Assembly: GCA_964014485.1 (NCBI GenBank)
Contig: CAXHAT010000071.1
Span: 1 to 36,179 of the forward strand
Reading direction: 5' to 3'
Source: an uncultured Deferribacteres bacterium
GTDB taxonomy: Bacteria > Zhuqueibacterota > Zhuqueibacteria > Zhuqueibacterales > Geothermadaptataceae
DNA: 36,179 bases
In this document: one piece after another, positions 111 to 28,488 of the stretch
Layout: each line of letters starts with the position of its first letter
Numbering within the stretch: position 1 is the first letter of the stretch
Made by a program: the position numbers and the translations under genes
Notes under the pieces: model-generated
Seen by the model: only the letters and a program-made list of their open reading frames with translations
What the model was told of the DNA's origin: nothing
Databases searched by the model: none

Positions 111-734
111 TTATACGTCGCTTTGCCGAATCGCCGTGATCGGTTCTGGTGATTTTTCCCAAGATCTGATGAAGTTTTCTTGTTCGATCCCGCAGGCGTC
201 CGCAAAGCGATTGATGTAATTAAAGAAACCAATAATCTGCGTTGCGTCGTGTATCGCCCGTTCGGAAAGGCCGTTTTTTCGCAACGCGTCGAGATTGTCG
301 GGGGTCATTTTCTGCGGGTGCAGAGTGAGTTTTTCGGCGTAGTCGCAAAGTGCAAAATTCGCGGCGGTGAGGCCGGCCAAACGCCAATCCTTTGCAATGT
401 GATGGACAAACAAGTCCGCCTCTGCATCGTCAGTTAATCCACAATCGTTTGCGACCTCGGCACGGAGGTCGTGGGCGTGTGATCGTATTCAGTAGACGCA
501 ATGGTTGGTCGCGGAAACAACGACCGCAAGCATTTCGCGCTGGCTGCGAGAAAGCGGCGAAGCTCCGTAAAGCAGCGTGCTATAAAAATCCATTGAAGCC
601 TTGAGCGCGCGGGGGTTTAGGCTCATGAGTCGAACGACATTCCAAATTCGTCCGGCGCGATCAAGGGCTTCGTCGTACTGTTTTTTCAAGTAGCCTTTTG
701 CGTCTTCGTAGGCGACTGTCTTAATCCATGCCAT
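111..734 (-). CDS. AhpD/carboxymuconolactone decarboxylase-like peroxidase, probable selenoprotein (CxxU), 207 aa
   Basis: ORFs 489..734 and 111..413 are in the same frame and joined by an open stretch after the TGA at 491-489: ...EMLAVVVSATNHCVY-U-IRSHAHDLRAEV...LFVHHIAKDW...YAEKLT...IIGFFNYINR. This matches the AhpD CxxCxxxH motif. Confidence 0.88.
452..471 (-). promoter_or_regulatory. Putative bacterial SECIS element
   Basis: mRNA stem CGACCUC/GAGGUCG with loop CGUGCC (G then U near the loop start). The loop begins 24 nt after the in-frame UGA. Confidence 0.75.
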
Positions 735-1995: not shown

Positions 1996-3354
1996 ATGAC
2001 CACAGGAAACGAAAGTTTGAAGGCGTTGCGAGACGCAGTCAGGCTTTCTCCCGATAACATTCCGTTACGGCAGCATTTTGCTGAAACGCTTATCGGAAAA
2101 GGGTTGGTGGAAGAAGCGGAAAGAGAATATCGCGGCGCGTTGTCGCTCGATCCTGACAATGTGCAGTTGAAGGTCGGATTGGCGAACGCGTTCTTTCAGC
2201 AAAATAAAAAATCGCCGGCCTTGGTTGTGCTGGAAGATTTGATTCAAAACAATGACGCGCCGGCGCGCGCTTACATGCTTTACGCTCGGCTTTTGATGAA
2301 ATCGGGTGAAAGAATTCAAGCGCTTGATGAGTATAAAAAGGCATTGAAGATGGACCCTGGCTTAGCGGACCCGACTCTTGCGGAACAGCTCGGCTTTAAT
2401 CCAATGGAATTGGACGAAGACGAAGAGACGTTTGGCGATGACGATGATCTTATTCCGGTGCCGAATGAATATCCTGACGACGACATAAATCTGGAGCTTG
2501 AGCGTCCGGATATTGACTTTCGTAACGTCGGCGGGATGGACAAGCTGAAAGAAGAAATTCGGATGAAAATCATTCATCCCTTGACGCATCCCGAAATTTA
2601 TTCAGCTTACGGCAAGCCGGTCGGCGGCGGCATTTTAATGTATGGCCCGCCCGGTTGCGGTAAAACGCACCTCGCCCGTGCAACCGCCGGAGAAGTCAAG
2701 GCGGGATTTATTTCCGTTGGCATCCACGACGTGCTCGATATGTGGATCGGCAACAGCGAAAGAAATTTGCATGAGCTTTTTGAATACGCGCGCGAACACA
2801 AGCCGTGCGTCCTGTTTTTCGATGAGGTTGACGCGCTAGGCGCTAGTCGGACGGACATGCGTCGTTCTGGCGGCAGGCAATTGATCAATCAGTTTCTGTC
2901 TGAGTTAGACGGTCTCGACGCCTCGAACGACGGCGTTTTGATTTTGGCTGCGACCAATGCGCCCTGGCACCTTGACTCCGCCTTTCGTCGCCCCGGCAGA
3001 TTTGATCGCATTCTGTTCGTCCCGCCTCCTGATGCGCAAGCGCGCGCTGCGATTTTGCGAATTATGCTGAAAGGCAAACCGATCCAGGACATAGACTACG
3101 ATTACATCGGCCAAAAAACGGACGGCTTTTCCGGCGCTGACTTAAAAGCTTTGATTGACGTTGCCATTGAAAGTAAACTCCGCCAGGCAATGAAAGCAGG
3201 AGTGCCGCAACCGATTGAAACCAAAGATTTGAAGAAAGCCGTTAAGCGTCTCAAGCCGACCACAAAGGAATGGTTTTCCACCGCCCGGAATTACACGCTC
3301 TATGCGAACGAAGGGGGGATTTACGACGATATCAAAGACTATTTAAAGCTTTAA
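1996..3354 (+). CDS. AAA+ ATPase with N-terminal TPR domain
   Basis: TPR-like helices, acidic linker, Walker A GPPGCGKT, Walker B LFFDEVD, SRH ATNAPWHLDSAFRRPGRFD. Confidence 0.92.
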   Translation: MTTGNESLKALRDAVRLSPDNIPLRQHFAETLIGKGLVEEAEREYRGALSLDPDNVQLKVGLANAFFQQNKKSPALVVLEDLIQNNDAPARAYMLYARLLMKSGERIQALDEYKKALKMDPGLADPTLAEQLGFNPMELDEDEETFGDDDDLIPVPNEYPDDDINLELERPDIDFRNVGGMDKLKEEIRMKIIHPLTHPEIYSAYGKPVGGGILMYGPPGCGKTHLARATAGEVKAGFISVGIHDVLDMWIGNSERNLHELFEYAREHKPCVLFFDEVDALGASRTDMRRSGGRQLINQFLSELDGLDASNDGVLILAATNAPWHLDSAFRRPGRFDRILFVPPPDAQARAAILRIMLKGKPIQDIDYDYIGQKTDGFSGADLKALIDVAIESKLRQAMKAGVPQPIETKDLKKAVKRLKPTTKEWFSTARNYTLYANEGGIYDDIKDYLKL

Positions 3355-6166: not shown

Positions 6167-7009
6167 ATGAAAACGCCGAACACGACATACAGAGAAAGTA
6201 AGATCACCCCCCGGACTTCTCCGCTTATTTCGCTTCCGAAACTGGATCAGAATATCACGCGCTTGCATCGCACCATTCAAAAGCTGGACGCACAACGAAA
6301 CACAAAATCCGTCGAAGTTCAGGCGCACGAAATGACGCATTTGTTTGCGCCAAAACTTCCTTTTTGGAAGCGCGCTACAGACGTTGCTCTTGCTTCATTG
6401 GCTTGCGTCCTGTTGTCGCCCGTCCTTTTGACGCTCGCCGCTTTTATCAAAATCGTTTCTCCCGGGCCGGTGTTTTTCAAGCAGGAACGCGTTGGGCGGC
6501 TTGGCAAGACGTTCACGATTCTGAAGTTTCGCTCCATGAAAGTCAACGCGAGCACGAACGTGCATCAAGACCACTTTGCCGATTTAATGAAGTCGGACAA
6601 GCCGATGCAGAAGCTGGACAAGGGCAAAGACGCGCGCGTTATTCCATTGGGCGGGCTGATTCGCAAATCCGGCATTGACGAACTCGCACAATTGTTCAAC
6701 GTGATTCGCGGCGACATGAGTCTGGTCGGACCGCGTCCGTGTCTGCCCTATGAAGCGGACGATTATCAGCAGTGGCAACGCGCCCGTTTCGACGTACTGC
6801 CGGGGATCACCGGGCTTTGGCAGGTCAGCGGCAAAAACAGAACGACTTTCAAAGAAATGATTCGTTTCGATATTAATTACGCAAGAACAGCCTCATTCTG
6901 GCTCGATATTAAAATCATGCTCAAAACGGTCCCGGCAATCATCGACCAAATGATCGACACATCCTTACCAAAAACCGAGAATGGAGTTGGAAATGGACAA
7001 ATCGCTTAA
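6167..7009 (+). CDS. Priming sugar transferase (phosphoglycosyl transferase)
   Basis: KRATD, one TM segment, FFKQERVG, KFRSM, IDELAQL, GDMSLVGPRP, PGITGLWQVSG. Confidence 0.93.
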   Translation: MKTPNTTYRESKITPRTSPLISLPKLDQNITRLHRTIQKLDAQRNTKSVEVQAHEMTHLFAPKLPFWKRATDVALASLACVLLSPVLLTLAAFIKIVSPGPVFFKQERVGRLGKTFTILKFRSMKVNASTNVHQDHFADLMKSDKPMQKLDKGKDARVIPLGGLIRKSGIDELAQLFNVIRGDMSLVGPRPCLPYEADDYQQWQRARFDVLPGITGLWQVSGKNRTTFKEMIRFDINYARTASFWLDIKIMLKTVPAIIDQMIDTSLPKTENGVGNGQIA

Positions 7010-8072
7010 TATCGGCGTCGTAGGCTGCGGTTACTGGGGCCCGAACTTGATCCGAAATTTTAATGCTCTTCCTGATTCAAAAATCAGCGCGATTTGTGAC
7101 AAAGACGCTAAGCGTCTTGCGCACATGCAAAAGCTTTATCCCGAAGCGATGATCACGGAACACTTTGTCGATTTCGTTAAAGACGAAAAACTTGATGCTG
7201 TCGCCATTGCAACGCCCGTGCATACGCATTACCGTTTTGCCAAGGCCAGTCTGCTGGCGGGAAAACATACTTACATTGAAAAGCCGATGGCCGCGTCTGT
7301 TGCCGAGTGTGAAGAACTGGTTGAGCTGGCCAAGAAGCTGAATTTGACGCTGTTTATCGGACACACTTTTATTTACTCCGCGCCTGTCCGCATGATCAAA
7401 GAAATGATTTCTTCCGGCTATTTGGGCGACGTGTACTACATCAATTCGCAGCGCCTCAACCTCGGCCTGTTTCAGCAAGACGTTAACGTCGCGTGGGATT
7501 TGGCGCCGCACGATATTTCCATCATTCAATATCTTTTTGATGAACGCCCGACCGCCGTGAATTGCCAGGGCAAGGCGAACGTGAACGCGAAAATCGAAGA
7601 CATTACGACGATGTCGCTTGAATTTTCAAACAATAAATTTGCAATCGTTCAGAGTAGCTGGCTTGACCCCAATAAAGTTCGTAAAATGACCATTGTCGGC
7701 AGCGAGCGCATGCTGGTTTATGATGACAATGAGCCGCTCGAAAAGATCAAAATTTACGACAAACGCGTTGATGCTCCGCAATATTACGATACCTTTGGCG
7801 AATTCCAATACTCGTACCATTACGGCGACGCCAGCATTCCTTATCTTAAACAATCGGAACCGCTGAAAACGCTTTGTCAGCATTTTGTCGAATGTATTAA
7901 CGAGCAAGCCAAGCCGGAATCTAGCGGCGTGGAAGGTCTTCAAGTCGTGCAGGTTTTGGAAGCAGCTTCAAAATCTTTACGAGAAGACGGCGCAAAAGTC
8001 ATGATCGAGCAAGCGAATGCTGTTGACGCGAAACAAAAAACAGCGTCGGATTCGATTGTAACAATTGTGTGA
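6993..8072 (+). CDS. Gfo/Idh/MocA oxidoreductase (WlbA/WbpB-like nucleotide-sugar dehydrogenase)
   Basis: GVVGCGYWG, EKP and DLAPHD motifs. Start may be 6981 or 6993. Confidence 0.88.
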   Translation: MDKSLNIGVVGCGYWGPNLIRNFNALPDSKISAICDKDAKRLAHMQKLYPEAMITEHFVDFVKDEKLDAVAIATPVHTHYRFAKASLLAGKHTYIEKPMAASVAECEELVELAKKLNLTLFIGHTFIYSAPVRMIKEMISSGYLGDVYYINSQRLNLGLFQQDVNVAWDLAPHDISIIQYLFDERPTAVNCQGKANVNAKIEDITTMSLEFSNNKFAIVQSSWLDPNKVRKMTIVGSERMLVYDDNEPLEKIKIYDKRVDAPQYYDTFGEFQYSYHYGDASIPYLKQSEPLKTLCQHFVECINEQAKPESSGVEGLQVVQVLEAASKSLREDGAKVMIEQANAVDAKQKTASDSIVTIV

Positions 8073-8083
8073 AAGGGATAAGG

Positions 8084-8572
8084 ATGAGCGACCGCCAGGA
8101 AAGACCGTATCAAATGATCGCGCCGGACGTGAAGATCGGCGAAAATGCGCAAATCTATAGTTTCGTCAACCTGTATGGCTGCGAAATTGGCGAGAACACG
8201 AAGGTGGGCACTTTCGTGGAAATTCAAAAAGGCGCCAAGATTGGCGGAAACTGTAAGATTTCGAGCCACACTTTCGTTTGTGAAGGCGTGACGATTGAAG
8301 ATAACGTTTTTGTTGGGCACGGGGTTGTTTTCATCAACGACTTAACGCCTCGCGCAACTGCGGCCGATGGCGCTCTTCAAACCGAGGATGACTGGACATG
8401 TACGCCGACCCTCGTTAAGAAGGGCGCTTCCATCGGCTCAGGCGTGACGTTGCTGGCGGGAATCACGATTGGCGAAAACGCCATGGTTGGCGCGGGCAGC
8501 GTGGTGACCAAAGACGTTCCCCCGAATGCAGTTGTTGCCGGCAATCCGGCCAGGATATTGAGGACGCTTTAA
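8084..8572 (+). CDS. Hexapeptide-repeat N-acyltransferase (WlbB/WbpD-like)
   Basis: Left-handed beta-helix repeats, GASIGSG...VGAGSVVTKDVP...AGNPA. Confidence 0.9.
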   Translation: MSDRQERPYQMIAPDVKIGENAQIYSFVNLYGCEIGENTKVGTFVEIQKGAKIGGNCKISSHTFVCEGVTIEDNVFVGHGVVFINDLTPRATAADGALQTEDDWTCTPTLVKKGASIGSGVTLLAGITIGENAMVGAGSVVTKDVPPNAVVAGNPARILRTL

Positions 8573-8594
8573 ATTTCAGGCAGAGGAGACAAAC

Positions 8595-9728
8595 ATGAAA
8601 GTGCCTTTTTTAGACTTGAAGGCGCAATACGCGACCATTCAAGACGATATTGATCAGGCGATCCAAAAAGTGATCGAAAACACGGCCTTCGCTTCCGGGC
8701 CGTTCGTTGAAGCATTTGAAAAGAACTTTGCGGAGGCGTGTCAAACCAAGCACGCGATTGGGCTGGGCAGCGGAACCGAGGCGCTTTGGCTGGCCTTGCT
8801 GGCGAAAGATATTGGCCCCGGCGATGAGGTGATCACAACGCCAAATACGTTTATCGCAACGGCGGAAGCCATCAGCTACGTCGGCGCTAAGCCGGTCTTT
8901 GTTGACGTAGATGAGCAGACTTACAATATTAATCCCGAACTCATCGAAGCGGCGATTACGCCCAAAACGAAGGCGATTGTCCCAGTGCATTTGTTCGGCC
9001 AAATGGCGGATATGGACGCAGTTATGGCTATTGCCGAAAAACACGGCTTGATTGTCATAGAAGACGCTTGCCAGGCTCATGACGCGACCTATAAAGGCCG
9101 TGCAGCCGGTTCAATCGGTCACGTTGGATGTTTCAGTTTTTATCCTGGAAAAAACCTCGGCGCATACGGAGACGCAGGCGGATTGGTGACCAACGACGAC
9201 GCGATTGCACAAAAAGTCAAAATGCTGCGCGATCACGGGCAGGAAAAAAAATATCACCACGGGCTTGTTGGTTGGAATGCACGCATGGACGGCATTCAAG
9301 GCGCCGTTCTCGATGTGAAATTGCGCCATCTTACGAAATGGTCGGACGCGCGCATCGCGAACGCCAAAACTTATGAAACCTTGCTGCAAGACGTCGATGA
9401 AGTTGCTGCGCCGTACACTGCGCCGGACAACCGTCACGTCTTTCACATCTACGCCGTGCGCGTTGCTGACCGGGACGGCATGCTGCAAGCGCTGGCGAGT
9501 CGTGAAGTTTATTGCGGCATTCATTACCCAATTCCATTGCACTTGCAGCCTGCCTACAAGGATTTGAATTTGCCGAAGGGCAGCTTTCCGGTAACGGAGA
9601 AATGCGCGGCGGAATATTTATCCTTGCCCATGTTCCCGGAATTGACCGAAGAGCAAGTCGGCGCAGCCGTTCAAGAGATTAAAAACGTTCTGGCTGAAAG
9701 ATCGACGACGTTCGCAAAAGCGAGCTAA
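8595..9728 (+). CDS. DegT/DnrJ/EryC1/StrS sugar aminotransferase (WlbC/WbpE-like)
   Basis: IEDACQAH and SFYPGKNLGAYGDAG (PLP lysine). Confidence 0.94.
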   Translation: MKVPFLDLKAQYATIQDDIDQAIQKVIENTAFASGPFVEAFEKNFAEACQTKHAIGLGSGTEALWLALLAKDIGPGDEVITTPNTFIATAEAISYVGAKPVFVDVDEQTYNINPELIEAAITPKTKAIVPVHLFGQMADMDAVMAIAEKHGLIVIEDACQAHDATYKGRAAGSIGHVGCFSFYPGKNLGAYGDAGGLVTNDDAIAQKVKMLRDHGQEKKYHHGLVGWNARMDGIQGAVLDVKLRHLTKWSDARIANAKTYETLLQDVDEVAAPYTAPDNRHVFHIYAVRVADRDGMLQALASREVYCGIHYPIPLHLQPAYKDLNLPKGSFPVTEKCAAEYLSLPMFPELTEEQVGAAVQEIKNVLAERSTTFAKAS

Positions 9729-9741
9729 AATACACGTCCTT

Positions 9742-9769
9742 GTAGGGGCGTATTGCAATGCGCCCCTAC
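9742..9769. repeat. GTAG-type REP-like palindrome
   Basis: GTAGGGGCGTATTGCAATGCGCCCCTAC, just after the stop codon. Confidence 0.75.
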
Positions 9770-9847
9770 GATGCGCTCAAAGTTTAAGGGCCATGATTGG
9801 ACGGCCCATGATGATAAAACACAACGCGACGAACAAGAACGACATCA

Positions 9848-10888
9848 ATGAGCACGGCAGCAGGATTCGTCAATCCTCTTGAAGATCCGAACTGGGATCG
9901 ACGACTAAAATCTCACCCGAAGACTACGATTTTTCACACAGCGGTCTGGGCGAAAGTCCTTGCCGAGAGTTATCGCTTTACTCCAAGTTATTTGTCACAT
10001 TTTGAAAGTGATCGCATCGTCACGCTTCTGCCGATGATGGAGATCAACAGCAGGTGGACGGGCCGCCGAGCCGTCTCCCTGCCTTTTTCAGACTATTGCA
10101 CCCCCTTGCTTTCTCATGATCCCCCGCTTCATGAGGTCGTTTCCATGATCAGGAATGATAGCAGAGCGACCTCGTGGAGATTTCTTGAAATTCGAGACGA
10201 CGACGATGCTAAAACGATTTTTCAACCGTCGCACGCGTATTTCGGCCACAAGCTCGATCTTCGGGTTGGAGAAGAAAACTTATACAAAGGCCTCAAGAGC
10301 AACGCGCGGCGCAACATCAAAAAAGCAATCAAGGAAAACATTGTCACGGATCGTCAGACGTCGCTCGGAGCCGTTAAGCGGTTTTTCGAACTCAATTGCA
10401 TGACACGGAAAAAACACGGCTTGCCGCCTCAGCCCTGGCGTTTTTTCAAAAAGCTGCACGAACATGTGATTTTGCCCGGCCAAGGTTTTGTGCAAATGGC
10501 TCATCTTGACAAAAAAGCGATCGCCGGCGCTGTTTTTTTACATTTTAACGGTCGCGCCGTTTACAAATACGGCGCGTCGGATCCGGCCTATCAAACCATG
10601 CGCCCTAACAATCTGATCATGTGGGAAGCCGTCCGCCATTTCGCCCGCGAGGGTTTTGAGAGTTTTTGCTTTGGTAAAACCGACCCGGCGAACGAAGGAT
10701 TGCGACGCTTCAAATTGGGATGGGGAGCGGAAGAATTTCCGATCAAGTACTACAAGTTTGATTTTCGCAAAGAAACGGTCGTGTTGGACGAGCCGCGTCT
10801 CGAAGGCCTGCACACGAAGATTTTCAACCGCACACCGACGCCTGTTTTGAAAGCTATTGGCGCGGTTTTGTATAAACATGTGGCGTAA
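9848..10888 (+). CDS. GNAT/FemAB-like acyltransferase
   Basis: TIFHT, SLPFSDY, ARRNIKKA, RPNNLIMWEA, GLRRFKLGWG. Confidence 0.85.
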   Translation: MSTAAGFVNPLEDPNWDRRLKSHPKTTIFHTAVWAKVLAESYRFTPSYLSHFESDRIVTLLPMMEINSRWTGRRAVSLPFSDYCTPLLSHDPPLHEVVSMIRNDSRATSWRFLEIRDDDDAKTIFQPSHAYFGHKLDLRVGEENLYKGLKSNARRNIKKAIKENIVTDRQTSLGAVKRFFELNCMTRKKHGLPPQPWRFFKKLHEHVILPGQGFVQMAHLDKKAIAGAVFLHFNGRAVYKYGASDPAYQTMRPNNLIMWEAVRHFAREGFESFCFGKTDPANEGLRRFKLGWGAEEFPIKYYKFDFRKETVVLDEPRLEGLHTKIFNRTPTPVLKAIGAVLYKHVA

Positions 10889-10936
10889 TTTCTATCAAAA
10901 AGAAAAACCATAATTAGCGGTGACAGGACAGCGATT

Positions 10937-12028
10937 ATGACGCTAAGGAAAGCTTTTTATGCCATAAAACCGATTATCCCGCGCGGTCTCCAGTTGACCA
11001 TGCGACGAAAATATGTTGCGCTTCAAAAACAACGTTACGGACATATTTGGCCCATCGACCCAAGAGCCGGCGTTGCGCCGGAAGACTGGCAAGGCTGGCC
11101 GGAAGGCAAACGCTTCGCCGTTGTGCTGACGCACGATGTGGAATGGGCTGAAGGACAAGACAAATCGCCTCTTTTGATGAATTTGGAACAAGAACGCGGT
11201 TTCCGTTCTTCATTCAATTTTGTACCGGAGCGCTACGAGGTTTCTGCTGAAATAAGGAAAAGATTGACGCAAAACGGCTTCGAAGTCGGCGTCCACGGCC
11301 TCAGGCACGACGGAAAGTTGTTTCGTTCCAGAATGGAGTTTGAGAGGCGGGCGATCCGCATCAACCAATACATCCAGGCATGGGATGCGGTGGGGTTTCG
11401 CGCCCCGGCCATGCACCATAATCTGGACTGGCTTCATCGCCTCGACATTCTCTACGACGCTTCCACTTTTGACGTTGATCCGTTCGAGCCGCAGGCCGAC
11501 GGCGTGGGCACGATCTTTCCGTTTTGGGTGCCGAACCAAAGCGATGACGGCGGATACGTGGAACTGCCTTACACAGTCGCACAAGATTTCACCCCCTTCG
11601 TTTTGATGCAGGAAAAGAAGATCGATTTTTGGAAAAAGAAGGTCGATTGGATTGTTGAGAAGGGCGGCATGGTGCTCGTCAACACGCATCCGGACTACAT
11701 GAATTTCGGCGATGCGCCGTTGGGCGCGGAGCAATTTCCCGTTGAGCGCTATCTTGAGCTTCTTGACTATATTCAATCCGAATATGCGGGCGAATTTTGG
11801 CACGCCTTGCCGAAGGATGTGGCTGTGTTTATCAAAAAGCAGCACGTGGAAGATGATCATCACGCATCGACGAGCGAGTTTCGTATCGATTCAAGCAAAT
11901 TCGAACTGCCCGAGAGCGATCAGAATAGTGGAAGTGTAACGAAAGATTCCGACGCGACCTTAAAAAATAAGAGCCGTCATAAAACGTTACATCACGTTTC
12001 GAAACATGATGAGACGATCACATGTTGA
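10937..12028 (+). CDS. Polysaccharide deacetylase family protein
   Basis: LTHDVE, EVGVHGLRH, GFRAP and NTHPDY motifs, with a polar C-terminal tail. Confidence 0.85.
   Translation: MTLRKAFYAIKPIIPRGLQLTMRRKYVALQKQRYGHIWPIDPRAGVAPEDWQGWPEGKRFAVVLTHDVEWAEGQDKSPLLMNLEQERGFRSSFNFVPERYEVSAEIRKRLTQNGFEVGVHGLRHDGKLFRSRMEFERRAIRINQYIQAWDAVGFRAPAMHHNLDWLHRLDILYDASTFDVDPFEPQADGVGTIFPFWVPNQSDDGGYVELPYTVAQDFTPFVLMQEKKIDFWKKKVDWIVEKGGMVLVNTHPDYMNFGDAPLGAEQFPVERYLELLDYIQSEYAGEFWHALPKDVAVFIKKQHVEDDHHASTSEFRIDSSKFELPESDQNSGSVTKDSDATLKNKSRHKTLHHVSKHDETITC
11935..11991. promoter_or_regulatory. Second pair of enhancer boxes, inside the 3' end of the deacetylase gene
   Basis: TGTAACGAAAGATTCCG (11935-11951) and CGTCATAAAACGTTACA (11975-11991). 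Confidence 0.6.
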
Positions 12029-12089
12029 GAATGAATCAAAGTTATATAAAACAGAGCTTTAAGGCGCAATGGGAAGTCGACGCTCAATC

Positions 12090-12104
12090 TGGCACACGCC
12101 TTGC
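12090..12104 (+). promoter_or_regulatory. Sigma-54 (-24/-12) promoter, internal
   Basis: TGGCAC-ACGCC-TTGC followed by CTAA, as in the 5532 promoter. Confidence 0.8.
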
Positions 12105-12204
12105 CTAAGAGTAGACTATTCGATGTTTTACTACAAACGGAACTGAATAGCGTCGCATCAACCGACAACGACGATAAAACATTTTTGTGGTGTGAGGACT
12201 GATT

Positions 12205-13419
12205 ATGAGAATTTGTGTTTTAGCACACGCGGTTTTCGATGGCGACGCGAGAATTCAACGAGAAGCCAAAGCGCTGGCCGAAGCCGGTGCGGAAGTGGAC
12301 ATTTACTGCCTTTACCAGCCGAACGAACCTTACATCGAAGTTTCCGAGCGCATTCGGTTGATTCGGGAAGTTCGGTATAAACGACCGGATACTGCCGCGG
12401 CCATGCTCGCGCAGCTTCTGCGGTTTTTCTTCGCCTCGTTTTTCTGGGTGACGAAAAATCATTTAAAGAAAAAATATGACGCCATTCATGTTCACACCGT
12501 GCCTGATTTTCAGGTTTTCGCCGCCGTCATTCCAAAGCTGACCGGCGCGAAAGTCGTTCTCGACATGCATGAAATTCTGCCGGAATTGTATGCACGGAAA
12601 TTCAATTTGGCGACGACGCACTGGATGTTCCGCGTCATTAAATTTGTAGAAAAACTCTCGGTAAAATTCGCCGATCATGTCCTGATTGCTTCGCCGCTTT
12701 TTCGTGAACGCGTCGCAGAACGCACGGGACAGGGCGAGAAAATTAGAACGCTGATCAATATCCCGGACTTGAGCTACTTTGAACAAAGTGAAAGCGTCGT
12801 AAAACGCGAGAGTGAAAAAATCAGAGTGATTTATCCGGGCACGTTGAGCGAATTGCACGGCGTAGACGTGGCGATTGATGCGGTTGGACGGGCATGTCGC
12901 GAGAAAAAATTGGACCTGGAATTTCATATTTACGGTCACGGACCGGAAGAAGAAAACCTCCGGGCGCAGGTGAAGCGCCTGGGGTTGGAAAACGTCGTTC
13001 AGTTTCACAAGCCGTTGAAGCTGGAAGACCTTTACGCTGAAATGCGCCAAATGGACATTGGCCTGATTCCCAAGCGCAGCGGAACCTTCGCCGACGACGC
13101 GATGAGCACGAAGCTTTTCGAATATGTCGCCGCCGATCTGCCTGCGGTTGTTTCATGGACGAAATCTGACGCGCTGTTCTTTGATGAAAGCATGGTCGGT
13201 TTTTTTGAAGCAGGGAACGCTGAAGCAATGGCGGAAAAGATCGCTGAATTTGCTGAAAACCCGGCCATGCGGCGCGCCTACGCCGAAAACGCAAAAGAAG
13301 TTTTTAAGACCGTCAACTGGCGCATTATCAGCCGAACTTTGTTGACGGCGTTCAATATTGAAGTGGAAGAAGAACCTGCCGTTCAACCAGTTGTCCTGGA
13401 AGAATCCGTATTGACCTGA
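12205..13419 (+). CDS. Glycosyltransferase family 4
   Basis: DARIQREAKAL, HVHTVPD, DMHE, STKLFEY; GT-B fold pattern. Confidence 0.9.
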   Translation: MRICVLAHAVFDGDARIQREAKALAEAGAEVDIYCLYQPNEPYIEVSERIRLIREVRYKRPDTAAAMLAQLLRFFFASFFWVTKNHLKKKYDAIHVHTVPDFQVFAAVIPKLTGAKVVLDMHEILPELYARKFNLATTHWMFRVIKFVEKLSVKFADHVLIASPLFRERVAERTGQGEKIRTLINIPDLSYFEQSESVVKRESEKIRVIYPGTLSELHGVDVAIDAVGRACREKKLDLEFHIYGHGPEEENLRAQVKRLGLENVVQFHKPLKLEDLYAEMRQMDIGLIPKRSGTFADDAMSTKLFEYVAADLPAVVSWTKSDALFFDESMVGFFEAGNAEAMAEKIAEFAENPAMRRAYAENAKEVFKTVNWRIISRTLLTAFNIEVEEEPAVQPVVLEESVLT

Positions 13420-13534
13420 AACGCAGCCGGGCAAGAGAGTAGTCGCGCCGGCAGACGCGAAATGCTCTTCCTGCAACACGAATTGAACGACAGCTTCGAG
13501 AAAATCAGAGGGCGCAAACAACGGGAGCAGAACC

Positions 13535-14395
13535 ATGCAGCCAAAATTCGCAATTGTCACGCCGGTTAAAAATGAAGAAGGCTTTTTTGACAAGACGCTG
13601 GAATCAGTCGTTAACCAGACGGTGAAGCCGACCAAATGGGTCGTCGTCAATGACGGTTCGACCGACGGCACGAAAGATTTGATCGAAAGATACGCCGCAC
13701 AGCATGACTGGATTCATCCAGTGCATAACCCGCCGCGCGAAAGACGCGACCCCGGCGGCGAAGGCGTCATCGCGCAGGGCATAAAACATATAAACGTAGA
13801 CGACTACGATTTTTTCACGCGCATGGACGGAGATCTGGAGTTCGAGCCGAATTACTTTGAAGATTTGTTTAAGCGTTTTTCGGAAAACAAGCGGCTTGGC
13901 GTGGCCAGCGGCGTCTGTTTTCTGCGCGAAAATGGTAGAGAAGTCGAAGAATCGCACCAGCGATTTCACACCCGAGGCCCCAACAAGACCTATCGCAAAG
14001 AGTGTTTCAAAGATATTGGCGGCCTGGAGCCGGGGCTTGGCTGGGACACGATCGACGAAGTCAAAGCCAACATGTGCGGCTGGCAGTCCTACAGTTTTCC
14101 TGAACTCAGAATCATCCATTTGCGCCCGACGCAAACCGCCAAAGGCGCGCTCAACGGCATGAAAAATTTTGGCGTCGCGTCTTATTACACGGGCTATCAT
14201 CCGCTTTACCTGATCGCCCGCGCCATGCGGCGAATGTTTGATCGTCCGTACTTTTTCGGCGGTTTAAGCATGTTGCGCGGTTATTTCGGCGAATTGATGC
14301 GCAAAGCGCCGCAAGTAAATGATCCGGACTTGATCGCTTATGTTCGCACGCAGCAAATGAATCGGCTTTTGGGCCGGGAATCGATCTGGAGATAA
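13535..14395 (+). CDS. Glycosyltransferase family 2
   Basis: IVTPVKNEE, VNDGSTDGT, DGD motif, GWDTIDE. Confidence 0.92.
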   Translation: MQPKFAIVTPVKNEEGFFDKTLESVVNQTVKPTKWVVVNDGSTDGTKDLIERYAAQHDWIHPVHNPPRERRDPGGEGVIAQGIKHINVDDYDFFTRMDGDLEFEPNYFEDLFKRFSENKRLGVASGVCFLRENGREVEESHQRFHTRGPNKTYRKECFKDIGGLEPGLGWDTIDEVKANMCGWQSYSFPELRIIHLRPTQTAKGALNGMKNFGVASYYTGYHPLYLIARAMRRMFDRPYFFGGLSMLRGYFGELMRKAPQVNDPDLIAYVRTQQMNRLLGRESIWR

Positions 14396-14397
14396 CA

Positions 14398-15846
14398 GTG
14401 TCGGAACAGACGAGAAAAGGATTTCTCAAAGGCGTTTTTTCAACTTCCTCCGGGACAATCGTGGCAATTTTGTTCAACTTCGTCACGATCACGGCGATTG
14501 TCAAAGCTTTGCCGGAAGCGGAGTTTGGCGTTTACGTCTTAACCCTGGCGGCGGTCAACGCCCTGCGCATAATCGCGGGACTCGGCCTTGATCTCACGCT
14601 GGTTAAATTCATTTCCGGCGATGAAAACCGACGGAAAGGAGAAGCGCTGGCGTCCATCCTGACCGTCCGAATTGCCGCACTGCTTACCGTCGCAGCCGTT
14701 TTGGGCGCTGGGGGCAGCCTGCTCGCGGAGCTGTTCGACGCACGCATTGCCGAGTTTTTACCGCAAGCCTTGATGATTTTCGGGCTGATGAGCCTGACTG
14801 AACTGTTTTATCATTTGCTGCAAGGCATGAAGGCTTTTAGCAAATTTGCATTGCTGCAGGTGGTTTCGGCGCTTGTGAAGTTCAGCGTTATTCTCGCCTT
14901 TGTGCAACAGGATTCGCTGACTTTGTCGCGCGCCCTTCTGATGGAAATTGCGGCGTTGGCAACGCTTTTGGTCGCGCAAATTATTCTGCTGCGCGGCGAA
15001 TTTGCAGGTATGAAATTCTCAAAAGGCGTCACGCGCGACGCTTTCAAATTCGGCGTTCCGCTCTATTTGAACAATATGCTGACCTTTGTCTATCAGCGCG
15101 CCAGCGTATTCATCATGGCCTTCTTGTTGAGTCCGGTCAGCATCGCCTACTACGAAGTCGCCTCGAAAATCCCCGAAGGATTTCAACGCTTGTTCCGCTC
15201 ATTCATAAACGTCTATTTTCCAATGCTCTCCGGGCTTTTCTCGGAAGGAAAAAAGGAGCAGGCGGCGCGCTTCATGAACAACGCGTTATTTTATCTCGCA
15301 ATCATCGGACTGAGCCTGGCGTTTTGGTCAATCGTCTTTCGCGGCGAGATCGTCACGCTGATTTTTTCAGAAAATTATCGCGCATCCACATTGGCTTTCG
15401 CCTTGTTGACGGTTGATTTTTTCCTGATGATTTTAGGCTACACGATGGGCTATTCGCTTGTTTCCGCCGGAGACTCGGCGGCGCCGGTCAAAATCAACAC
15501 GATCACGAGTACCGTGAGCCTGATCGCAAACTTTGTGTTTATTCCGATGTACGGGTTCATCGGTGCGGTCTACGCGATTCTCATCATGCACGGGCTCGGC
15601 GTGATCTTGAATTACCGCTATCTCCTGCGGCTCGAAATCACCGCCAATTTGGGCGCATTGCTCAAACCGTGCCTGCATTTTCTGGCTTTTTGTCTGGTCG
15701 CCGTCTTTCTCAACGACGCAAGCATCCAGACGCGCATCGCACTCGTCGCGACATATTTTCTGACCAACGTTTTATTCTACGCCGAAATTAGGGGCGTGCT
15801 CGGCGCATCAATGACAATGCTAAGACGCAGAGTCGCGAGAGTTTAA
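14398..15846 (+). CDS. wzx: Oligosaccharide flippase (Wzx)
   Basis: About 12-14 hydrophobic segments, EFGVY, YYEVASKI, IPMYGFIGAVYA; polysaccharide locus context. Confidence 0.85.
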   Translation: MSEQTRKGFLKGVFSTSSGTIVAILFNFVTITAIVKALPEAEFGVYVLTLAAVNALRIIAGLGLDLTLVKFISGDENRRKGEALASILTVRIAALLTVAAVLGAGGSLLAELFDARIAEFLPQALMIFGLMSLTELFYHLLQGMKAFSKFALLQVVSALVKFSVILAFVQQDSLTLSRALLMEIAALATLLVAQIILLRGEFAGMKFSKGVTRDAFKFGVPLYLNNMLTFVYQRASVFIMAFLLSPVSIAYYEVASKIPEGFQRLFRSFINVYFPMLSGLFSEGKKEQAARFMNNALFYLAIIGLSLAFWSIVFRGEIVTLIFSENYRASTLAFALLTVDFFLMILGYTMGYSLVSAGDSAAPVKINTITSTVSLIANFVFIPMYGFIGAVYAILIMHGLGVILNYRYLLRLEITANLGALLKPCLHFLAFCLVAVFLNDASIQTRIALVATYFLTNVLFYAEIRGVLGASMTMLRRRVARV

Positions 15847-15960
15847 GAAATGGAGTTTTGGATGAATGGAATCATGGATTATTGGATTGACTTAATGCGA
15901 TTACGCAACTAATCTCGTTAAACCCAATCTTCCAATACTCCAGAAATCCATAACTCCAGC
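15847..15960. repeat. Inverted arrays of degenerate octamers (NNNNTGGA x5 / TCCANNNN x5)
   Basis: 15847-15886 and 15923-15960; same family as 1-101. Confidence 0.8.
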
Positions 15961-15986
15961 AAAGAATTGCCCCTCTGCCCCACACG

Positions 15987-16033
15987 TGCGGCTCCCGGAG
16001 CGCTTCGGCGTGATGATGGGAGCCGCATTTTTT
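15987..16033 (+). terminator. Terminator-like hairpin containing a kink-turn and UUCG tetraloop
   Basis: 10 bp stem TGCGGCTCCC/GGGAGCCGCA, internal loop GGA/GATGAT, GCGC-TTCG-GCGT cap, T6 tail. Confidence 0.6.
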
Positions 16034-16084
16034 AATCAAGGCGGAACAGGGCGCGAGAAACCAAATTTTCAGCACGCATTTCTA

Positions 16085-16225
16085 AGAGATCGCTTAGGAC
16101 GTTCCCGGTTTGTCATTCTGAAAGAATCTGTGGTATCGCCCAGTACGAGTTACGCTCAAAGTTCAAGGGTTGGATCAAAAAAGATGCTTACAGCATGACA
16201 ATTAAGGACTTTCCAAGCGCCATCT
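16085..16225. repeat. Palindromic MITE/REP-like element, copy 2
   Basis: Core 16111-16200 is highly similar to 4720-4811. Imperfect outer IR. Confidence 0.75.
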
Positions 16226-16262
16226 AAACAACATCTTTGAACCAACATCTGTGGAGGCGGAA

Positions 16263-17417
16263 ATGGCGGCGCACACCCAAAAAGTGGTTATGGTCGACGC
16301 ACTGGTCGGCAACGATTATTCTTTCAATCTTTGCAACAGTCTCAAAACTGCGGGCGTTGATATTAATCTTGTGGTCACGGAAGATCGCGATGTGACGAAA
16401 CCCGTTGGATTTTCACTTCTCAAACTCCAGCCTTCCAAAGAGCGCGGAGGCGGCGGGAAGGCTGAAAAAACCGTCAAGTTTTTCAAATACCTTTCTCAGC
16501 TCCGGCGTTTTGTCAGCGAAAATAAGGTGAAAGTTGTTCATTATCAATTCTTCCGTCGCGCTCGCGTCGAAAGCTTGTTCTACGCTTTTATGCGCTTCAC
16601 CGGCGTCGGTATGGTTCACACCGTCCACGACGCAATGCCTCTGGACGAAAAACGCATCGACTACCTGTTCCGACTGCTCACCTACAAAGTTTCCAAAGCG
16701 CTGATCGTGCATTCGGATTACATCAAACAAGTCCTGATGCGAGAATTCGATATTCCCGACGAAAAAATCAAAATCATCCCCCATGGCGATTTTGATGATT
16801 TTTTGCCCGAAAACCCGATCACAAAAGCTGAAGCGCGCAAAAGCATCGGTTTTTCACAGGATGATCAGGTTCTGCTCTTTTTTGGTCACATCAAAAAATA
16901 CAAAGGGCTGGATTTGCTGTTGCAAGCGTTTGAAAAAGCGGCGGTAAAGAATCCAAAACTCAAGCTCATTATCGCAGGGCGACCCGACGGCGACGCACTG
17001 GCGAAACACTACAATGACATGATCGACGCGATGCAGTCGAAATCACAGGTTCTTTTTGACGCCAGCTTCATTCCCGACGAAAAAGTCGCCGAATATTTCA
17101 CGGCTTCGGATATGCTGACTTTGCCTTACACCAACATTTATCATAGCGGCGTTTTGCACCTGGCTTATTCTTTTGCTTTGCCGGTGCTCGCCACCCGCGT
17201 CGGCGATTTCGAAGAATCAATCGAGCATGGAAAAAGCGGCGTTTTACTCGAAGAAAACACGGAGAAAGCATTGACGGCCGCCATCGAAAAAGCCTTCGCA
17301 AATCCTGTGGCTCTCGCTGACATGGGAAAATACGCACGACGTTTGAGTGAAGATAAATATTCATGGTCGAACGTGGCGAACATAACCAAATCGACTTATG
17401 AAGCGCTGGCTGCGTAA
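16263..17417 (+). CDS. Glycosyltransferase family 4
   Basis: GGAGG RBS; HTVHD, IIPHG, FFGHIKKYKGLD, SGVLHLAYSF. Confidence 0.92.
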   Translation: MAAHTQKVVMVDALVGNDYSFNLCNSLKTAGVDINLVVTEDRDVTKPVGFSLLKLQPSKERGGGGKAEKTVKFFKYLSQLRRFVSENKVKVVHYQFFRRARVESLFYAFMRFTGVGMVHTVHDAMPLDEKRIDYLFRLLTYKVSKALIVHSDYIKQVLMREFDIPDEKIKIIPHGDFDDFLPENPITKAEARKSIGFSQDDQVLLFFGHIKKYKGLDLLLQAFEKAAVKNPKLKLIIAGRPDGDALAKHYNDMIDAMQSKSQVLFDASFIPDEKVAEYFTASDMLTLPYTNIYHSGVLHLAYSFALPVLATRVGDFEESIEHGKSGVLLEENTEKALTAAIEKAFANPVALADMGKYARRLSEDKYSWSNVANITKSTYEALAA

Positions 17418-17448
17418 AGTTTGAGGCGAAGAAGCAGATACTTGAGCG

Positions 17449-18534
17449 ATGGGCGAGAAGCGAACCGGGGGTTTCAAAAGGCTGAGTTTTTTTTCAGCAA
17501 TGACGGCGCTTTCTTTGGGCGCCGCTTTTCTACTCACGGAAATATTTCTGCGCATTTTCCTGCCGCAACAGGAAGCCATGGGATGGTTTACGCCCGACCA
17601 GCGCTACGGCTTTGTGATGAAGAAAAATTTTCGTCAGGAGTATCAATACGCAGGGTCGATTTTTACCATGATCGTGGAGACCAATTCGCTGGGTTTGCGC
17701 GATCGCGAGTATGATTTTTCCGAGAGCTTTCAAAAACGAATTCTGCTCATTGGCGATTCTTTTACGTTCGGGTACGCCGTTCAAGCCGAAGACAATTTTG
17801 ACTATAAGTTAGAAAAATTGGCGCTGAAAAAAGCCGGTGAAAACTGGGCCGTCATCAATTCGGGACACGGCGGCTGGGGAACATTGCAGGCAAGCCGATT
17901 TGCACGCGATCATTTCGAGAAATTCAAGCCGGATGCGATTGTCTACACCTTCTGTGGAAACGATCCAAATGATGACGTTCGTTTTTCGAGCATGAGATTA
18001 GATCCAGTGAAAGGCAGGCTCAAGTTTCCCGGGAAAGCTTTTATCCGTGAGCACTCGCATCTTTATCGCCTGATTTACAACTCGTACAAAATTTACGAAA
18101 ACAACCGGCGGCTTGAAAAAAAAATGGCGCAAGTAGACGACTTACAGAATGTCGTTGTCGACACGCAAAGCGCGAGCGTGATTACGCCGGAAATTTGGCG
18201 CGAAACGCTGGCGAAAATTCAGACGCTGCACCAAAGTTTTATGGAATTTAACCCCGACGGCAGACTCCTGATCCAGGCGTCTGCGCCGCTCAATAAAAAC
18301 ATTCGCCGAAACTTGCGCTCCCTCGAGAACGGAAAAAGCCTGATTTACGTCGACCTTGCGGACGAAGTGCAAAAGCTTCCGCCCAAAGATCGCGTGCTGC
18401 CTTATGACGGCCACTGGAGTCCCGCCGTCCACACAATTTCAGCGCAGAAGATTTTTGAAGCATTGCAGCGCTTTTCGACAGAGCCGGATTCGAGCGAAAC
18501 AAAAACCCTTGTGAATCAATCCTGGCCGGAGTGA
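17449..18534 (+). CDS. Membrane-anchored SGNH/GDSL hydrolase (putative polysaccharide O-acyl transferase/esterase)
   Basis: N-terminal TM, NSLGLRD, IGDSFTFG, GND, DGHW. Confidence 0.85.
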   Translation: MGEKRTGGFKRLSFFSAMTALSLGAAFLLTEIFLRIFLPQQEAMGWFTPDQRYGFVMKKNFRQEYQYAGSIFTMIVETNSLGLRDREYDFSESFQKRILLIGDSFTFGYAVQAEDNFDYKLEKLALKKAGENWAVINSGHGGWGTLQASRFARDHFEKFKPDAIVYTFCGNDPNDDVRFSSMRLDPVKGRLKFPGKAFIREHSHLYRLIYNSYKIYENNRRLEKKMAQVDDLQNVVVDTQSASVITPEIWRETLAKIQTLHQSFMEFNPDGRLLIQASAPLNKNIRRNLRSLENGKSLIYVDLADEVQKLPPKDRVLPYDGHWSPAVHTISAQKIFEALQRFSTEPDSSETKTLVNQSWPE

Positions 18535-19943
18535 CCGTCGTTTTGTCCAACCTAACTTCAGAAGAAATGAAAGCCGCGCCGATGCAGCTCCACTGGGTCG
18601 AGAAAATCGCGCGCATCACGTTTGCGGTTTATTTCTTTTTCATCTTTTTCGGCACTTCCATGCCGTTCCAGGAGCGCAGTCAGGACGTCGGCGACATCGG
18701 CACTTCGAACATTCTCAATCAACTTATTTTTACCACGCTTTTTCTGACTTCCTCGCTTTGTCTCGCTTATTCGCACCGAAGGTTGGCCGCTTTTATCAAG
18801 CGCGAGAAGTTTTTGACCATTTTTCTTGCCTGGTGCCTGCTCAGCGTCGTTTGGTCGCAATTTAGTTTTCCTTCCTTCAAACGTCTCTTTCAGATTTTTA
18901 CCACCGTCACGGTTTGCGCCGCTTTTTTGCTCAATACCAAAAATTCAGCGGATTATTTTAAGGTTTTCAAGAACATTCTCACGCTCTACATTTTTGCTTC
19001 CTTTCTGTCGGTTGCCCTCGTCCCCGGAGCCATCGATCCGGATCATGACAACGGCGCGTGGCGTTGTTTGGCGCACAGCAAGAATTTCCTCGGACAGACG
19101 GCGGTGGTCAGCATTCTCATTTGGTTTTTCGCTCTGCAAAATCCGGAAAGCCGCCGTGACAAAAGATTCTCGCTGCTCATGCTTTTTCTCTCGCTGGTTT
19201 TACTTGCCGGAACGCGCAGCATGACCTCTATTCTGACGTTCGGCGTATTAGCGGGCTTCGGCGCTTTGCTTTGGATCGACAAGCAAATGAAACCAATGGG
19301 GGTGGGACATGCTTTCTCCGCGCTGATTTTATTTGCCGCTGTTTCTCTCATTTCCGTCTTCCTGTTTCTCGCTCCCGAGATTCTGGCTTCAGCGCCCGGC
19401 CTGGTCGGCAAAGATCTGACTTTTACAGGCAGAACCGATCTCTGGCTCGATATATTAGACGAGACTGGCCGTCATTGGCTCATCGGCTGCGGTTTTTCGG
19501 GATTTTGGGTGGTGGATAACGAAGCCGTGCTGGCGCTCTACAAACGCTACATTTGGCTGCCCAACGAGGCGCACAACGGTTATCTTGATCTCGTCAACGA
19601 AGTTGGCGTTGTCGGGCTTGCAATGTTACTCATGATGTGCGTTCATTTCTTTCGCAAATTGAGCGCGGCGCCTGATTCCGGCTTTCTAAAATGGATAGTC
19701 ATCATCGTGCTTATCATGAACCTGCAGGAATCCACGCTTTTTCGGCAAAACATCCTGACGGGCGTGATGTTTATTTTTGCGTACGTCGCCGTTTTTGCCA
19801 GAGAGCCGCGCGCACTTCCGGAAACGCAAACGGCAAACGCCGGGGGAGAAGTTTCCGGCAAAAATCGAATTCAAACGAGCCGTCATGAGACCGTACATTT
19901 TAGCCGAAACAAACTGGAAAGCCGTTCAAGAAGCCGAATTTGA
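18531..19943 (+). CDS. O-antigen ligase/Wzy-like polymerase
   Basis: Multi-TM, SKNFLG, TRSMTS, DLTFTGRTDLW, AHNGYLD. Confidence 0.85.
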   Translation: MTVVLSNLTSEEMKAAPMQLHWVEKIARITFAVYFFFIFFGTSMPFQERSQDVGDIGTSNILNQLIFTTLFLTSSLCLAYSHRRLAAFIKREKFLTIFLAWCLLSVVWSQFSFPSFKRLFQIFTTVTVCAAFLLNTKNSADYFKVFKNILTLYIFASFLSVALVPGAIDPDHDNGAWRCLAHSKNFLGQTAVVSILIWFFALQNPESRRDKRFSLLMLFLSLVLLAGTRSMTSILTFGVLAGFGALLWIDKQMKPMGVGHAFSALILFAAVSLISVFLFLAPEILASAPGLVGKDLTFTGRTDLWLDILDETGRHWLIGCGFSGFWVVDNEAVLALYKRYIWLPNEAHNGYLDLVNEVGVVGLAMLLMMCVHFFRKLSAAPDSGFLKWIVIIVLIMNLQESTLFRQNILTGVMFIFAYVAVFAREPRALPETQTANAGGEVSGKNRIQTSRHETVHFSRNKLESRSRSRI

Positions 19944-28432: not shown

Positions 28433-28460
28433 GTAAGCAGTAAGCAGTAAGCAGTAAGCA
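28433..28460. repeat. Heptamer tandem repeat GTAAGCA x4
   Basis: Read directly between two convergent genes. Confidence 0.85.
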
Positions 28461-28488
28461 GTGAGTTGAGAAGGGTTTGCTTGACTGT

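Follow-up and report, generated by a model that had tools for sequence, protein, structure and literature searches.

In AhpD of M. tuberculosis, the second Cys of the active-site motif is the attacking residue. The protein acts as an AhpC reductase in a chain that runs from NADH through Lpd and DlaT to AhpD and on to AhpC (PMC12028322). Weak Cys-dependent peroxidase activity is reported for PA0269 (PMC3141380), and a D. radiodurans DR_1765 mutant is described as sensitive to H2O2 (PMC8945050, PMC6300522) and as poorly complemented by Cys mutants of the gene (PMC8945050). Forms that carry selenocysteine (Sec) in place of a Cys have also been catalogued, as the first-pass annotation of the present locus had stated: an 'AhpD-like protein' of COG2128 with a CXXU motif was listed from the Sargasso Sea in 27 sequences by Zhang, Fomenko and Gladyshev in 2005 (PMC1088965), the family numbers 299 sequences in the GOS survey (PMC2398784), a 2026 review table gives it as the CxxU family 'AhpD-like 1' with TIGR01926 (PMC13188914), and it is a browsable family in BSepDB (PMC13326102). 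Two Cys-to-Sec events have already been tabulated for COG2128 (PMC1794560). The reports on Sec-containing AhpD-like proteins that our targeted searches returned, from a range that took in few subscription journals, were computational only in the parts available, so that a biochemical test of such proteins could be informative. Decoding of UGA by SelB with Sec-tRNA at a SECIS element is an established bacterial mechanism (PMC1794560), and the published bacterial SECIS consensus has a loop of 3-9 nt, a stem of 4-16 bp, a spacing of 16-37 nt and a free energy of −7.5 kcal/mol or lower, with G[G|U] in the loop and the G within its first two positions (PMC13188914).

The locus described here lies near one end of the window, by which we mean the whole 36,179-nucleotide stretch of DNA that was analysed, from a genome (G000) of 8.4 Mb that is 97% complete in 465 contigs. 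Its features are as follows:

111..734, minus strand: AhpD-like (TIGR01926, COG2128-type) selenoprotein gene, predicted 207 aa, from ATG at 734-732 to TAA at 113-111
489..491, minus strand: in-frame TGA, codon 82, putative selenocysteine (CxxU), aligned to Cys of 6K40, 2OYO and 3C1L
477..536, minus strand: codons of the AhpD proton-relay helical hairpin, E67 (536-534), C79 (500-498), Y81 (494-492), U82 (491-489) and H86 (479-477)
452..471, minus strand: candidate bacterial SECIS hairpin with a 7-bp stem, a 6-nt loop and G at loop position 2, from folding, a consensus-model script and comparative pairing

The minus-strand frame from 734 to 111 has 207 codons and a single internal stop, TGA 491-489, in the context NHCVY*IRSH; a plus-strand reading of 111-734 was rejected, having five stops in frame. 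The first-pass annotation had proposed that two 'separate' ORFs share this frame and are interrupted by a TGA alone, that the TGA falls at the second Cys of the AhpD motif (NHCVY-TGA-IRSH) and that standard callers would split the gene. All of this holds, codon 82 occupying the column of the second Cys of CxxC and a standard ORF lister cutting the gene into 489-734 (81 aa) and 111-413 (100 aa, TTG start); the interval 111..734 it gave is the extent of the gene, to which the strand, absent from that annotation, has to be added as minus. The letters themselves appear secure. A contig from run X1, which may be the source sample, has zero differences from the window over 439-1248, and one from run X2 of the same study has zero differences over 477-662, reaching just 12 letters past the TGA; the coverage of run X3 (share 0.18) excludes the UGA. 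None of the runs listed for this DNA is an RNA run, which says nothing about expression. Reads with TGC or TGT would have spoken for an error, and the X1 and X2 contigs carry TGA unchanged, as do 27 of 27 further loci, which makes a sequencing error behind the TGA very unlikely. We conclude that the two apparent short genes are a single gene, for a small enzyme of antioxidant type, whose internal stop almost certainly encodes selenocysteine.

The surroundings of the gene offer little by way of a functional context. Directly upstream, on the same strand, is a PIN-domain gene (VapC-like, of toxin-antitoxin type) that occupies two frames (721-1157); its piece 960-1157 matches Pfam PIN positions 2-48 (E 4e-6) and its piece 724-1011 positions 46-111 (E 0.069), the frame break lies near an A-run at about 990 where the sequencing-run contigs carry identical letters, and the 3' piece extends over the selenoprotein start codon, with an overlap of 14 nt. 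A small minus-strand ORF just upstream of it, at about 1162-1380, is antitoxin-like by position only and has no family match, and a stretch related to the PIN-gene region is also found on contig C123 of G000. Just downstream of the selenoprotein gene, at the contig end, positions 1-63 form a perfect 8-mer tandem repeat of 7.9 copies, and a perfect 7-mer repeat of 4.3 copies lies at 28433-28462 between two convergent genes. A polysaccharide biosynthesis cluster (polyprenyl sugar transferase, sugar aminotransferase, glycosyltransferases, flippase and an O-ligase-like gene) occupies 6167-19943 of the plus strand and has several PEP-CTERM-associated matches below cut-off. The window neighbours on the opposite strand, namely a SAM decarboxylase gene, AAA/TPR genes and this cluster, appear unrelated to the selenoprotein gene. 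When the neighbourhoods of 29 subfamily loci were compared as gene clusters without annotation, only lineage-specific synteny was found and no common partner gene. Rfam at gathering thresholds gave no family within the window, and predicted promoters and terminators in 1-1520 did not clearly outnumber those of shuffled sequence (5 against 2.5 ± 1.5, and 3 against 1.7 ± 1.4).

Read through with Cys at position 82, the protein scores 136.8 bits against TIGR01926 (cut-off 81.8) over profile positions 1-174 of 178, while the separate halves score 58.8 and 63.6 bits, both under the cut-off; the Pfam matches are CMD and PA26. Membership of NF041238 (AhpD_rel_CFYUT) was rejected at 74 bits against a cut-off of 175, with only profile positions 151-338 of 357 covered. 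An AlphaFold2 model, also with Cys at 82 and built on a 34-row alignment, has a mean pLDDT of 92.2 and forms one confident domain from the N- and C-terminal halves, matching 6K40, 3C1L, 2OYO and 2PFX over about 187-196 columns. In Foldseek the match to 6K40 covers both halves (E 1.8e-11, query TM 0.79), and query TM values to the 6K40/2OYO/3C1L/2PFX/2PRR group are 0.76-0.80; in the best PDB matches (6K40, 2OYO, 3C1L and 2PFX) the UGA column is the second Cys of CxxC. The closest solved homologue, 6K40, is from D. radiodurans and, by a title match to a reference in a review, is the DR1765 protein. Sequence identity is 28-35% to the three closest structures (6K40, 2OYO and 3C1L) and 16-17% to the debrominase Bmp8, which, like sestrin, is also matched by the fold. 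The E67, C79, Y81, U82 and H86 columns do not vary in any of the 34 aligned rows when U is counted as C, and their spacing equals that of the proton-relay residues E36/C48/Y50/C51/H55 in PA0269 and E118/C130/H132/C133/H137 in M. tuberculosis AhpD (PMC3141380). The modelled protein thus has both hallmarks of the AhpD superfamily, the Glu-Cys-(His/Tyr)-Cys-His helical hairpin and the all-helical AhpD fold.

Alignment with homologues, which had been suggested as a check, places either Cys or TGA at column 82. Among 60 relatives, 24 have a match, and of 30 loci fetched from the 40 matches (two being G000's own) 28 have TGA at this column and two have Cys codons. A search across the phylum found matches in 32 of 113 genomes, with TGA in 41 of 48 matches; 26 new loci from this search were checked, and TGA stands at column 82 in 23 and a Cys codon in three. 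Collection scans added 27 closer loci of 49-65% identity, 19 of them in genomes (titled Chloroflexota, Latescibacterota, Planctomycetota and Gemmatimonadota) and 8 in metagenomes; all 27 have TGA at column 82, or 29 of 29 rows with the window gene and L029 included; in every one of the 29 the frame is open for 111-125 codons past the TGA. Of 150 representatives listed among database proteins, 92 are near full length, and 71 of these have Cys at the column. At the same column the 59 closer database homologues show Trp in 20, Cys in 3 and other letters in 4. The column is missing from the other 32, of which 31 are downstream (C-terminal) fragments. The gene is routinely split or mis-called; we take the Trp entries to come probably from gene callers that adopted code 4 for short contigs. 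Two database proteins of the LRAEV 24-nt subfamily type (P0015 and P0020) carry Arg in place of Sec; were its codon CGA or AGA, a single base would separate it from TGA. One orthologue (L076) has an apparent frameshift upstream of the CxxU motif, at about 3200-3243. In the distant homologues L050, L051 and L052 (from G028, G014 and G011) and L110 (G126) the first Cys is lost (SNY-TGA, GAP-TGA) and the TGA is kept; neither of the hairpin registers described below fits these loci, and they are possibly single-Sec variants with a third SECIS position. G000 itself carries a second TGA paralogue on C274 (7430-7972; L054/L019), 39% identical and reading CFY-TGA-MTHHGAGL, as well as Cys-type paralogues on C236, on C242 (two, in tandem) and on C157 (two).

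That the host uses Sec, as the first-pass annotation had supposed, is supported by its gene content: selA (566.6 bits), selB (332.3 bits), selD and tRNA-Sec(UCA) are all present in G000, each over its cut-off, and selD carries an in-frame TGA of its own. Across the 19 genomes with close orthologues selB is over its cut-off in all 19, tRNA-Sec is found in all 19, with that of G077 only at 50 bits, a score also reached by second, probably ordinary, tRNAs, and selA is found in 17, the other two having no match. The lineage is broadly Sec-using, with selA in 55 and tRNA-Sec in 52 of the 60 relatives, and co-occurrence of the TGA form with Sec genes therefore has little contrast there. Two relatives with TGA forms, G002 and G059, have no selA match and do have selB, selD and tRNA-Sec, and G001 has no selD match over the cut-off. 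For G053 (96% complete) neither selA nor tRNA-Sec gave a match at the thresholds applied, selB gave nothing over its cut-off and selD nothing at E ≤ 1e-20, and the single homologue of this genome has TGT at the Sec column. We rejected this genome as a control for reversion from Sec to Cys, since its gene groups with Cys homologues on the tree; what it shows is a genome with no detected Sec genes in which the TGA form was likewise not found, and not a reversion. One in-frame TGA also occurs in 2 of 16 AhpC/TSA-family matches of G000 (C217:2833-3219 and C371:2204-2647), each in a U-x-x-C-type motif with a predicted hairpin after it, and these two genes are candidates for further selenoproteins. 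ARAGORN lists two tRNA-Trp(cca) genes in the genome (C342:1277-1350 and C36:45740-45814) and makes long tRNA calls on C6, C16, C251 and C428 (Ile-tat of 95 nt, Cys 88, Phe 96 and Ile 85) that may be false.

The predicted hairpin follows the UGA after 17 nt, with 471-465 paired to 458-452 around the loop CGUGCC (464-459). The 7-bp stem and a loop starting 24 nt past the UGA are as first described, and the further claim that the element fits the bacterial SECIS model is upheld with a 6-nt loop, 7 bp, G at position 2, 24-nt spacing and −10.5 kcal/mol, according to a simplified in-house script of the published consensus that takes perfect stems only. This hairpin appears in the centroid structure of four of five folded stretches, and a 452-471 hairpin in the minimum free energy structure of all five. 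Its stability is not unusual against shuffled sequence (z −0.25 to −1.24 in the five stretches), and chance matches to the model occur: of 3000 random TGA triplets of G000, 76 pass its loose version and 19 its strict version (a stem of at least 7 bp and G[G/U] in the loop), and among 5000 synonymous recodings of the 25 downstream codons the figures are 472 and 46. The hairpin taken alone is thus suggestive, not decisive, and the strong evidence for this predicted element is comparative rather than energetic.

Over 27 distinct sequences (28 close-subfamily rows) 98.4% of 189 cells of the 24-nt hairpin are paired, a level reached by none of 500 shuffles and compared with 20-50% for slid registers, and RNAalifold unaided predicts six of the seven stem pairs. 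Two pairs show compensatory change, C-G to U-A in 4 and 5 rows (9 cells), one of them coupling a silent Asp GAC→GAT with Val→Ile and the other a silent Glu GAG→GAA with Leu→Phe. On the tree each falls in about one clade (the two clades being Caldilinea-type and Planctomycete-type rows), so that these are roughly two events and not nine, and the cell counts overstate independence. The codons beneath the hairpin are restricted as well, although the rows are mutually related and the counts are not independent trials: the loop Arg codon is only CGT or CGG in 27 of 27 rows (37% elsewhere in the same genes, where CGC is commonest at 46%), the stem Leu codon only CTC or CTT in 22 of 22 (35% elsewhere) and the stem Val codon only GTC or GTT in 19 of 19 (53% elsewhere). 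Alignment A1 leaves out L081, which is identical to L082 over this stretch, the codon counts leave out L081 and L076, the latter being frameshifted upstream of the motif, and alignment A2 leaves out L065, L076, L078, L082, L084 and most of the distant loci. The predicted hairpin is therefore conserved with compensatory changes, and codon choice is restricted beneath it, support that lies beyond the reach of a model given a single sequence.

The window subfamily, with the motif HAHD[L/F]R-x-E[V/I] and the loop starting 24 nt after the UGA, is set apart from the other TGA homologues (HGAGL, HAEDL and HAEFL types, including the C274 paralogue), which have a different hairpin with its loop at 16 nt. 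The latter is 90.9% paired over 22 rows, with a G-C↔C-G change in 8 rows. Taken singly, the C274 hairpin is weak at −5.6 kcal/mol and does not pass the simplified loose model. The registers do not exchange: the 24-nt register was rejected for the 22 other TGA homologues (35.1% paired), and the 16-nt register for the window subfamily (52.5% paired, no compensatory change). Among the host-phylum loci checked, the 24-nt form occurs in G000 and G001 only, each of which carries both forms; this patchiness, together with nearest relatives in other phyla, suggests lateral spread of the 24-nt form. A 91-row tree, built without the SECIS-coding columns from 13 of the 29 subfamily rows, 16 of the 23 16-nt rows and 42 Cys database proteins, among others, with three SxxU rows excluded, unites the 24-nt rows and 18 of the 19 'W' proteins in a group free of Cys proteins (support 80/96, not strong, and with the bootstrap not converged) and puts the 16-nt rows in three places among Cys proteins. 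The AU test, chosen after the tree had been seen, marginally rejects a topology in which every TGA/W row belongs to a single clade (p = 0.0395). The tree placement and this test somewhat favour separate Cys-to-Sec origins, each with its own SECIS, over relocation, but do not decide between them, the deep branches being poorly separated. Under relocation, which we regard as doubtful, the SECIS would have moved without loss of Sec, an ancestral 16-nt hairpin having given way, in the HAHDLRAEV subfamily, to a 24-nt hairpin mutually exclusive with it; the new hairpin would take its loop from the former 3' arm (the Arg codon) and would now dictate the Val→Ile and Leu→Phe changes. No description of a within-family SECIS shift was found in targeted literature searches with few subscription journals in scope.

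The locus could conceivably consist of two real genes, translation stopping at the TGA and re-initiating downstream, and the halves assembling as a split AhpD with one Cys. Such a reading would draw on the 31 downstream fragments among the database homologues, whose starts are called at the UGA or two residues past it (a count that is biased, because only proteins of at least 113 aa were candidates), and on an ATG, GTG or TTG at codon +1 in 11 of 55 TGA loci. In the remaining 44, however, the position of the first in-frame start is scattered between +2 and +61, and the start of the window gene, at +26 (position 413), would remove the invariant H86. Moreover, the stop is always TGA in the interrupted loci examined and never TAA or TAG, and the hairpin and the codon restriction sit after the UGA in a host with Sec machinery. 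The first-pass annotation had named homologues that are genuinely two genes as grounds for abandoning its proposal; the 27 closer loci all have TGA and a frame that is open for more than 110 codons after it. We consider the split arrangement highly improbable. Nearly as improbable is full-length synthesis without selenium, the UGA being read as Trp under code 4 or as Cys by a suppressor-type tRNA. The 20 database homologues with Trp at column 82 would agree with it, but code 4 was rejected for the host on both TGA usage and the tRNA list: TGA is an ordinary stop in G000, where 1362 of 3702 long frames end in it, as do 11 of the 30 genes in the window, and the sole tca-anticodon tRNA found by ARAGORN is tRNA-SeC. 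Trp at the catalytic Cys position would also remove the nucleophile, and TGA forms co-occur with selA, selB and selC.

A recent nonsense pseudogene, or an error of sequencing or assembly, might be suspected, given the 465 contigs of the genome, the position of the gene close to the end of one of them and its immediate upstream neighbour, the frameshifted PIN-domain gene. The TGA is nevertheless present in all 27 further loci, from four named phyla and metagenome contigs, the frame is open for 111-125 codons after it in 29 rows, and the run contigs carry no other letters; conservation of the codon across loci refutes this reading, to which we give practically no credence. A separate matter, which concerns function only, is the nature of the reaction, as a selenoprotein of the proposed gene model could serve some purpose other than peroxide reduction, such as reductive dehalogenation or the reduction of a specific partner. 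This is compatible with the fold, which matches the debrominase Bmp8 and sestrin, with the weakness of the peroxidase activity reported for PA0269 (PMC3141380), with the marine metagenome label of the runs holding the window DNA and with the want of a conserved partner gene adjoining. The peroxidase-related structures 6K40, 2OYO and 3C1L are, however, the closest in both structure and sequence, well ahead of Bmp8 in identity, and all relay residues are intact, so that we regard a different reaction as unlikely but worth keeping in mind. A role in peroxide or oxidant detoxification seems reasonably probable by homology, the label 'peroxidase' being carried over to the selenoprotein from its homologues.

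The explanation we prefer, and to which we attach high confidence, is a 207-aa AhpD-like Sec oxidoreductase made from a single gene by SECIS-directed decoding of UGA82; Sec incorporation at this codon we hold to be almost certain. The product would be a cytoplasmic AhpD-like thiol/selenol oxidoreductase with the active site C79-V-Y-U82. By the general bacterial mechanism, host SelB with Sec-tRNA(Sec) would bind the loop 24 nt past the UGA and insert selenocysteine, and in selenium shortage RF2 would be expected to terminate at the UGA, leaving an 81-aa fragment. In the folded protein the E67/H86 relay would activate the U82 selenolate, which most likely attacks peroxide or an oxidised partner and then forms a selenenyl-sulfide with C79; a dithiol, for instance a lipoyl protein, would probably re-reduce it, on the pattern of the chain that serves AhpD.

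How, then, does this gene compare with known systems? With M. tuberculosis AhpD it shares, in sequence, the five-residue relay spacing, but it has Tyr for His132 and Sec for Cys133, its helical hairpin lies in the N-terminal and not the C-terminal half, and no ahpC gene adjoins it in the window. The Cys peroxidase-related proteins (6K40, 2OYO, 3C1L, 2PFX and 2PRR, and PA0269, 2O4D) have the fold and the E-x11-C-x-Y-C-x3-H relay in common with it, and it differs in having Sec for the second Cys and, relative to 6K40, 2OYO and 3C1L, about 8-10 additional residues following the active-site helix. NF041238 (CFYUT) is a related CxxU AhpD-type selenoprotein family (E 1.3e-20). With the AhpD-like selenoproteins of COG2128/TIGR01926 the gene shares the NCBIfam model, CxxU, the in-frame UGA, a consensus-type SECIS and a Sec-encoding host, and there is no family-level difference; it represents the HAHD[L/F]R-x-E[V/I] subfamily with the 24-nt loop. 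By its sequence, the window gene is an ordinary member of a selenoprotein family known since 2005. The sole addition, of possible specialist interest, is a subfamily-specific SECIS position with both forms in one genome, where two paralogous selenoproteins served by one SelB at spacings of 24 and 16 nt form a natural pair for the study of SelB spacing tolerance.
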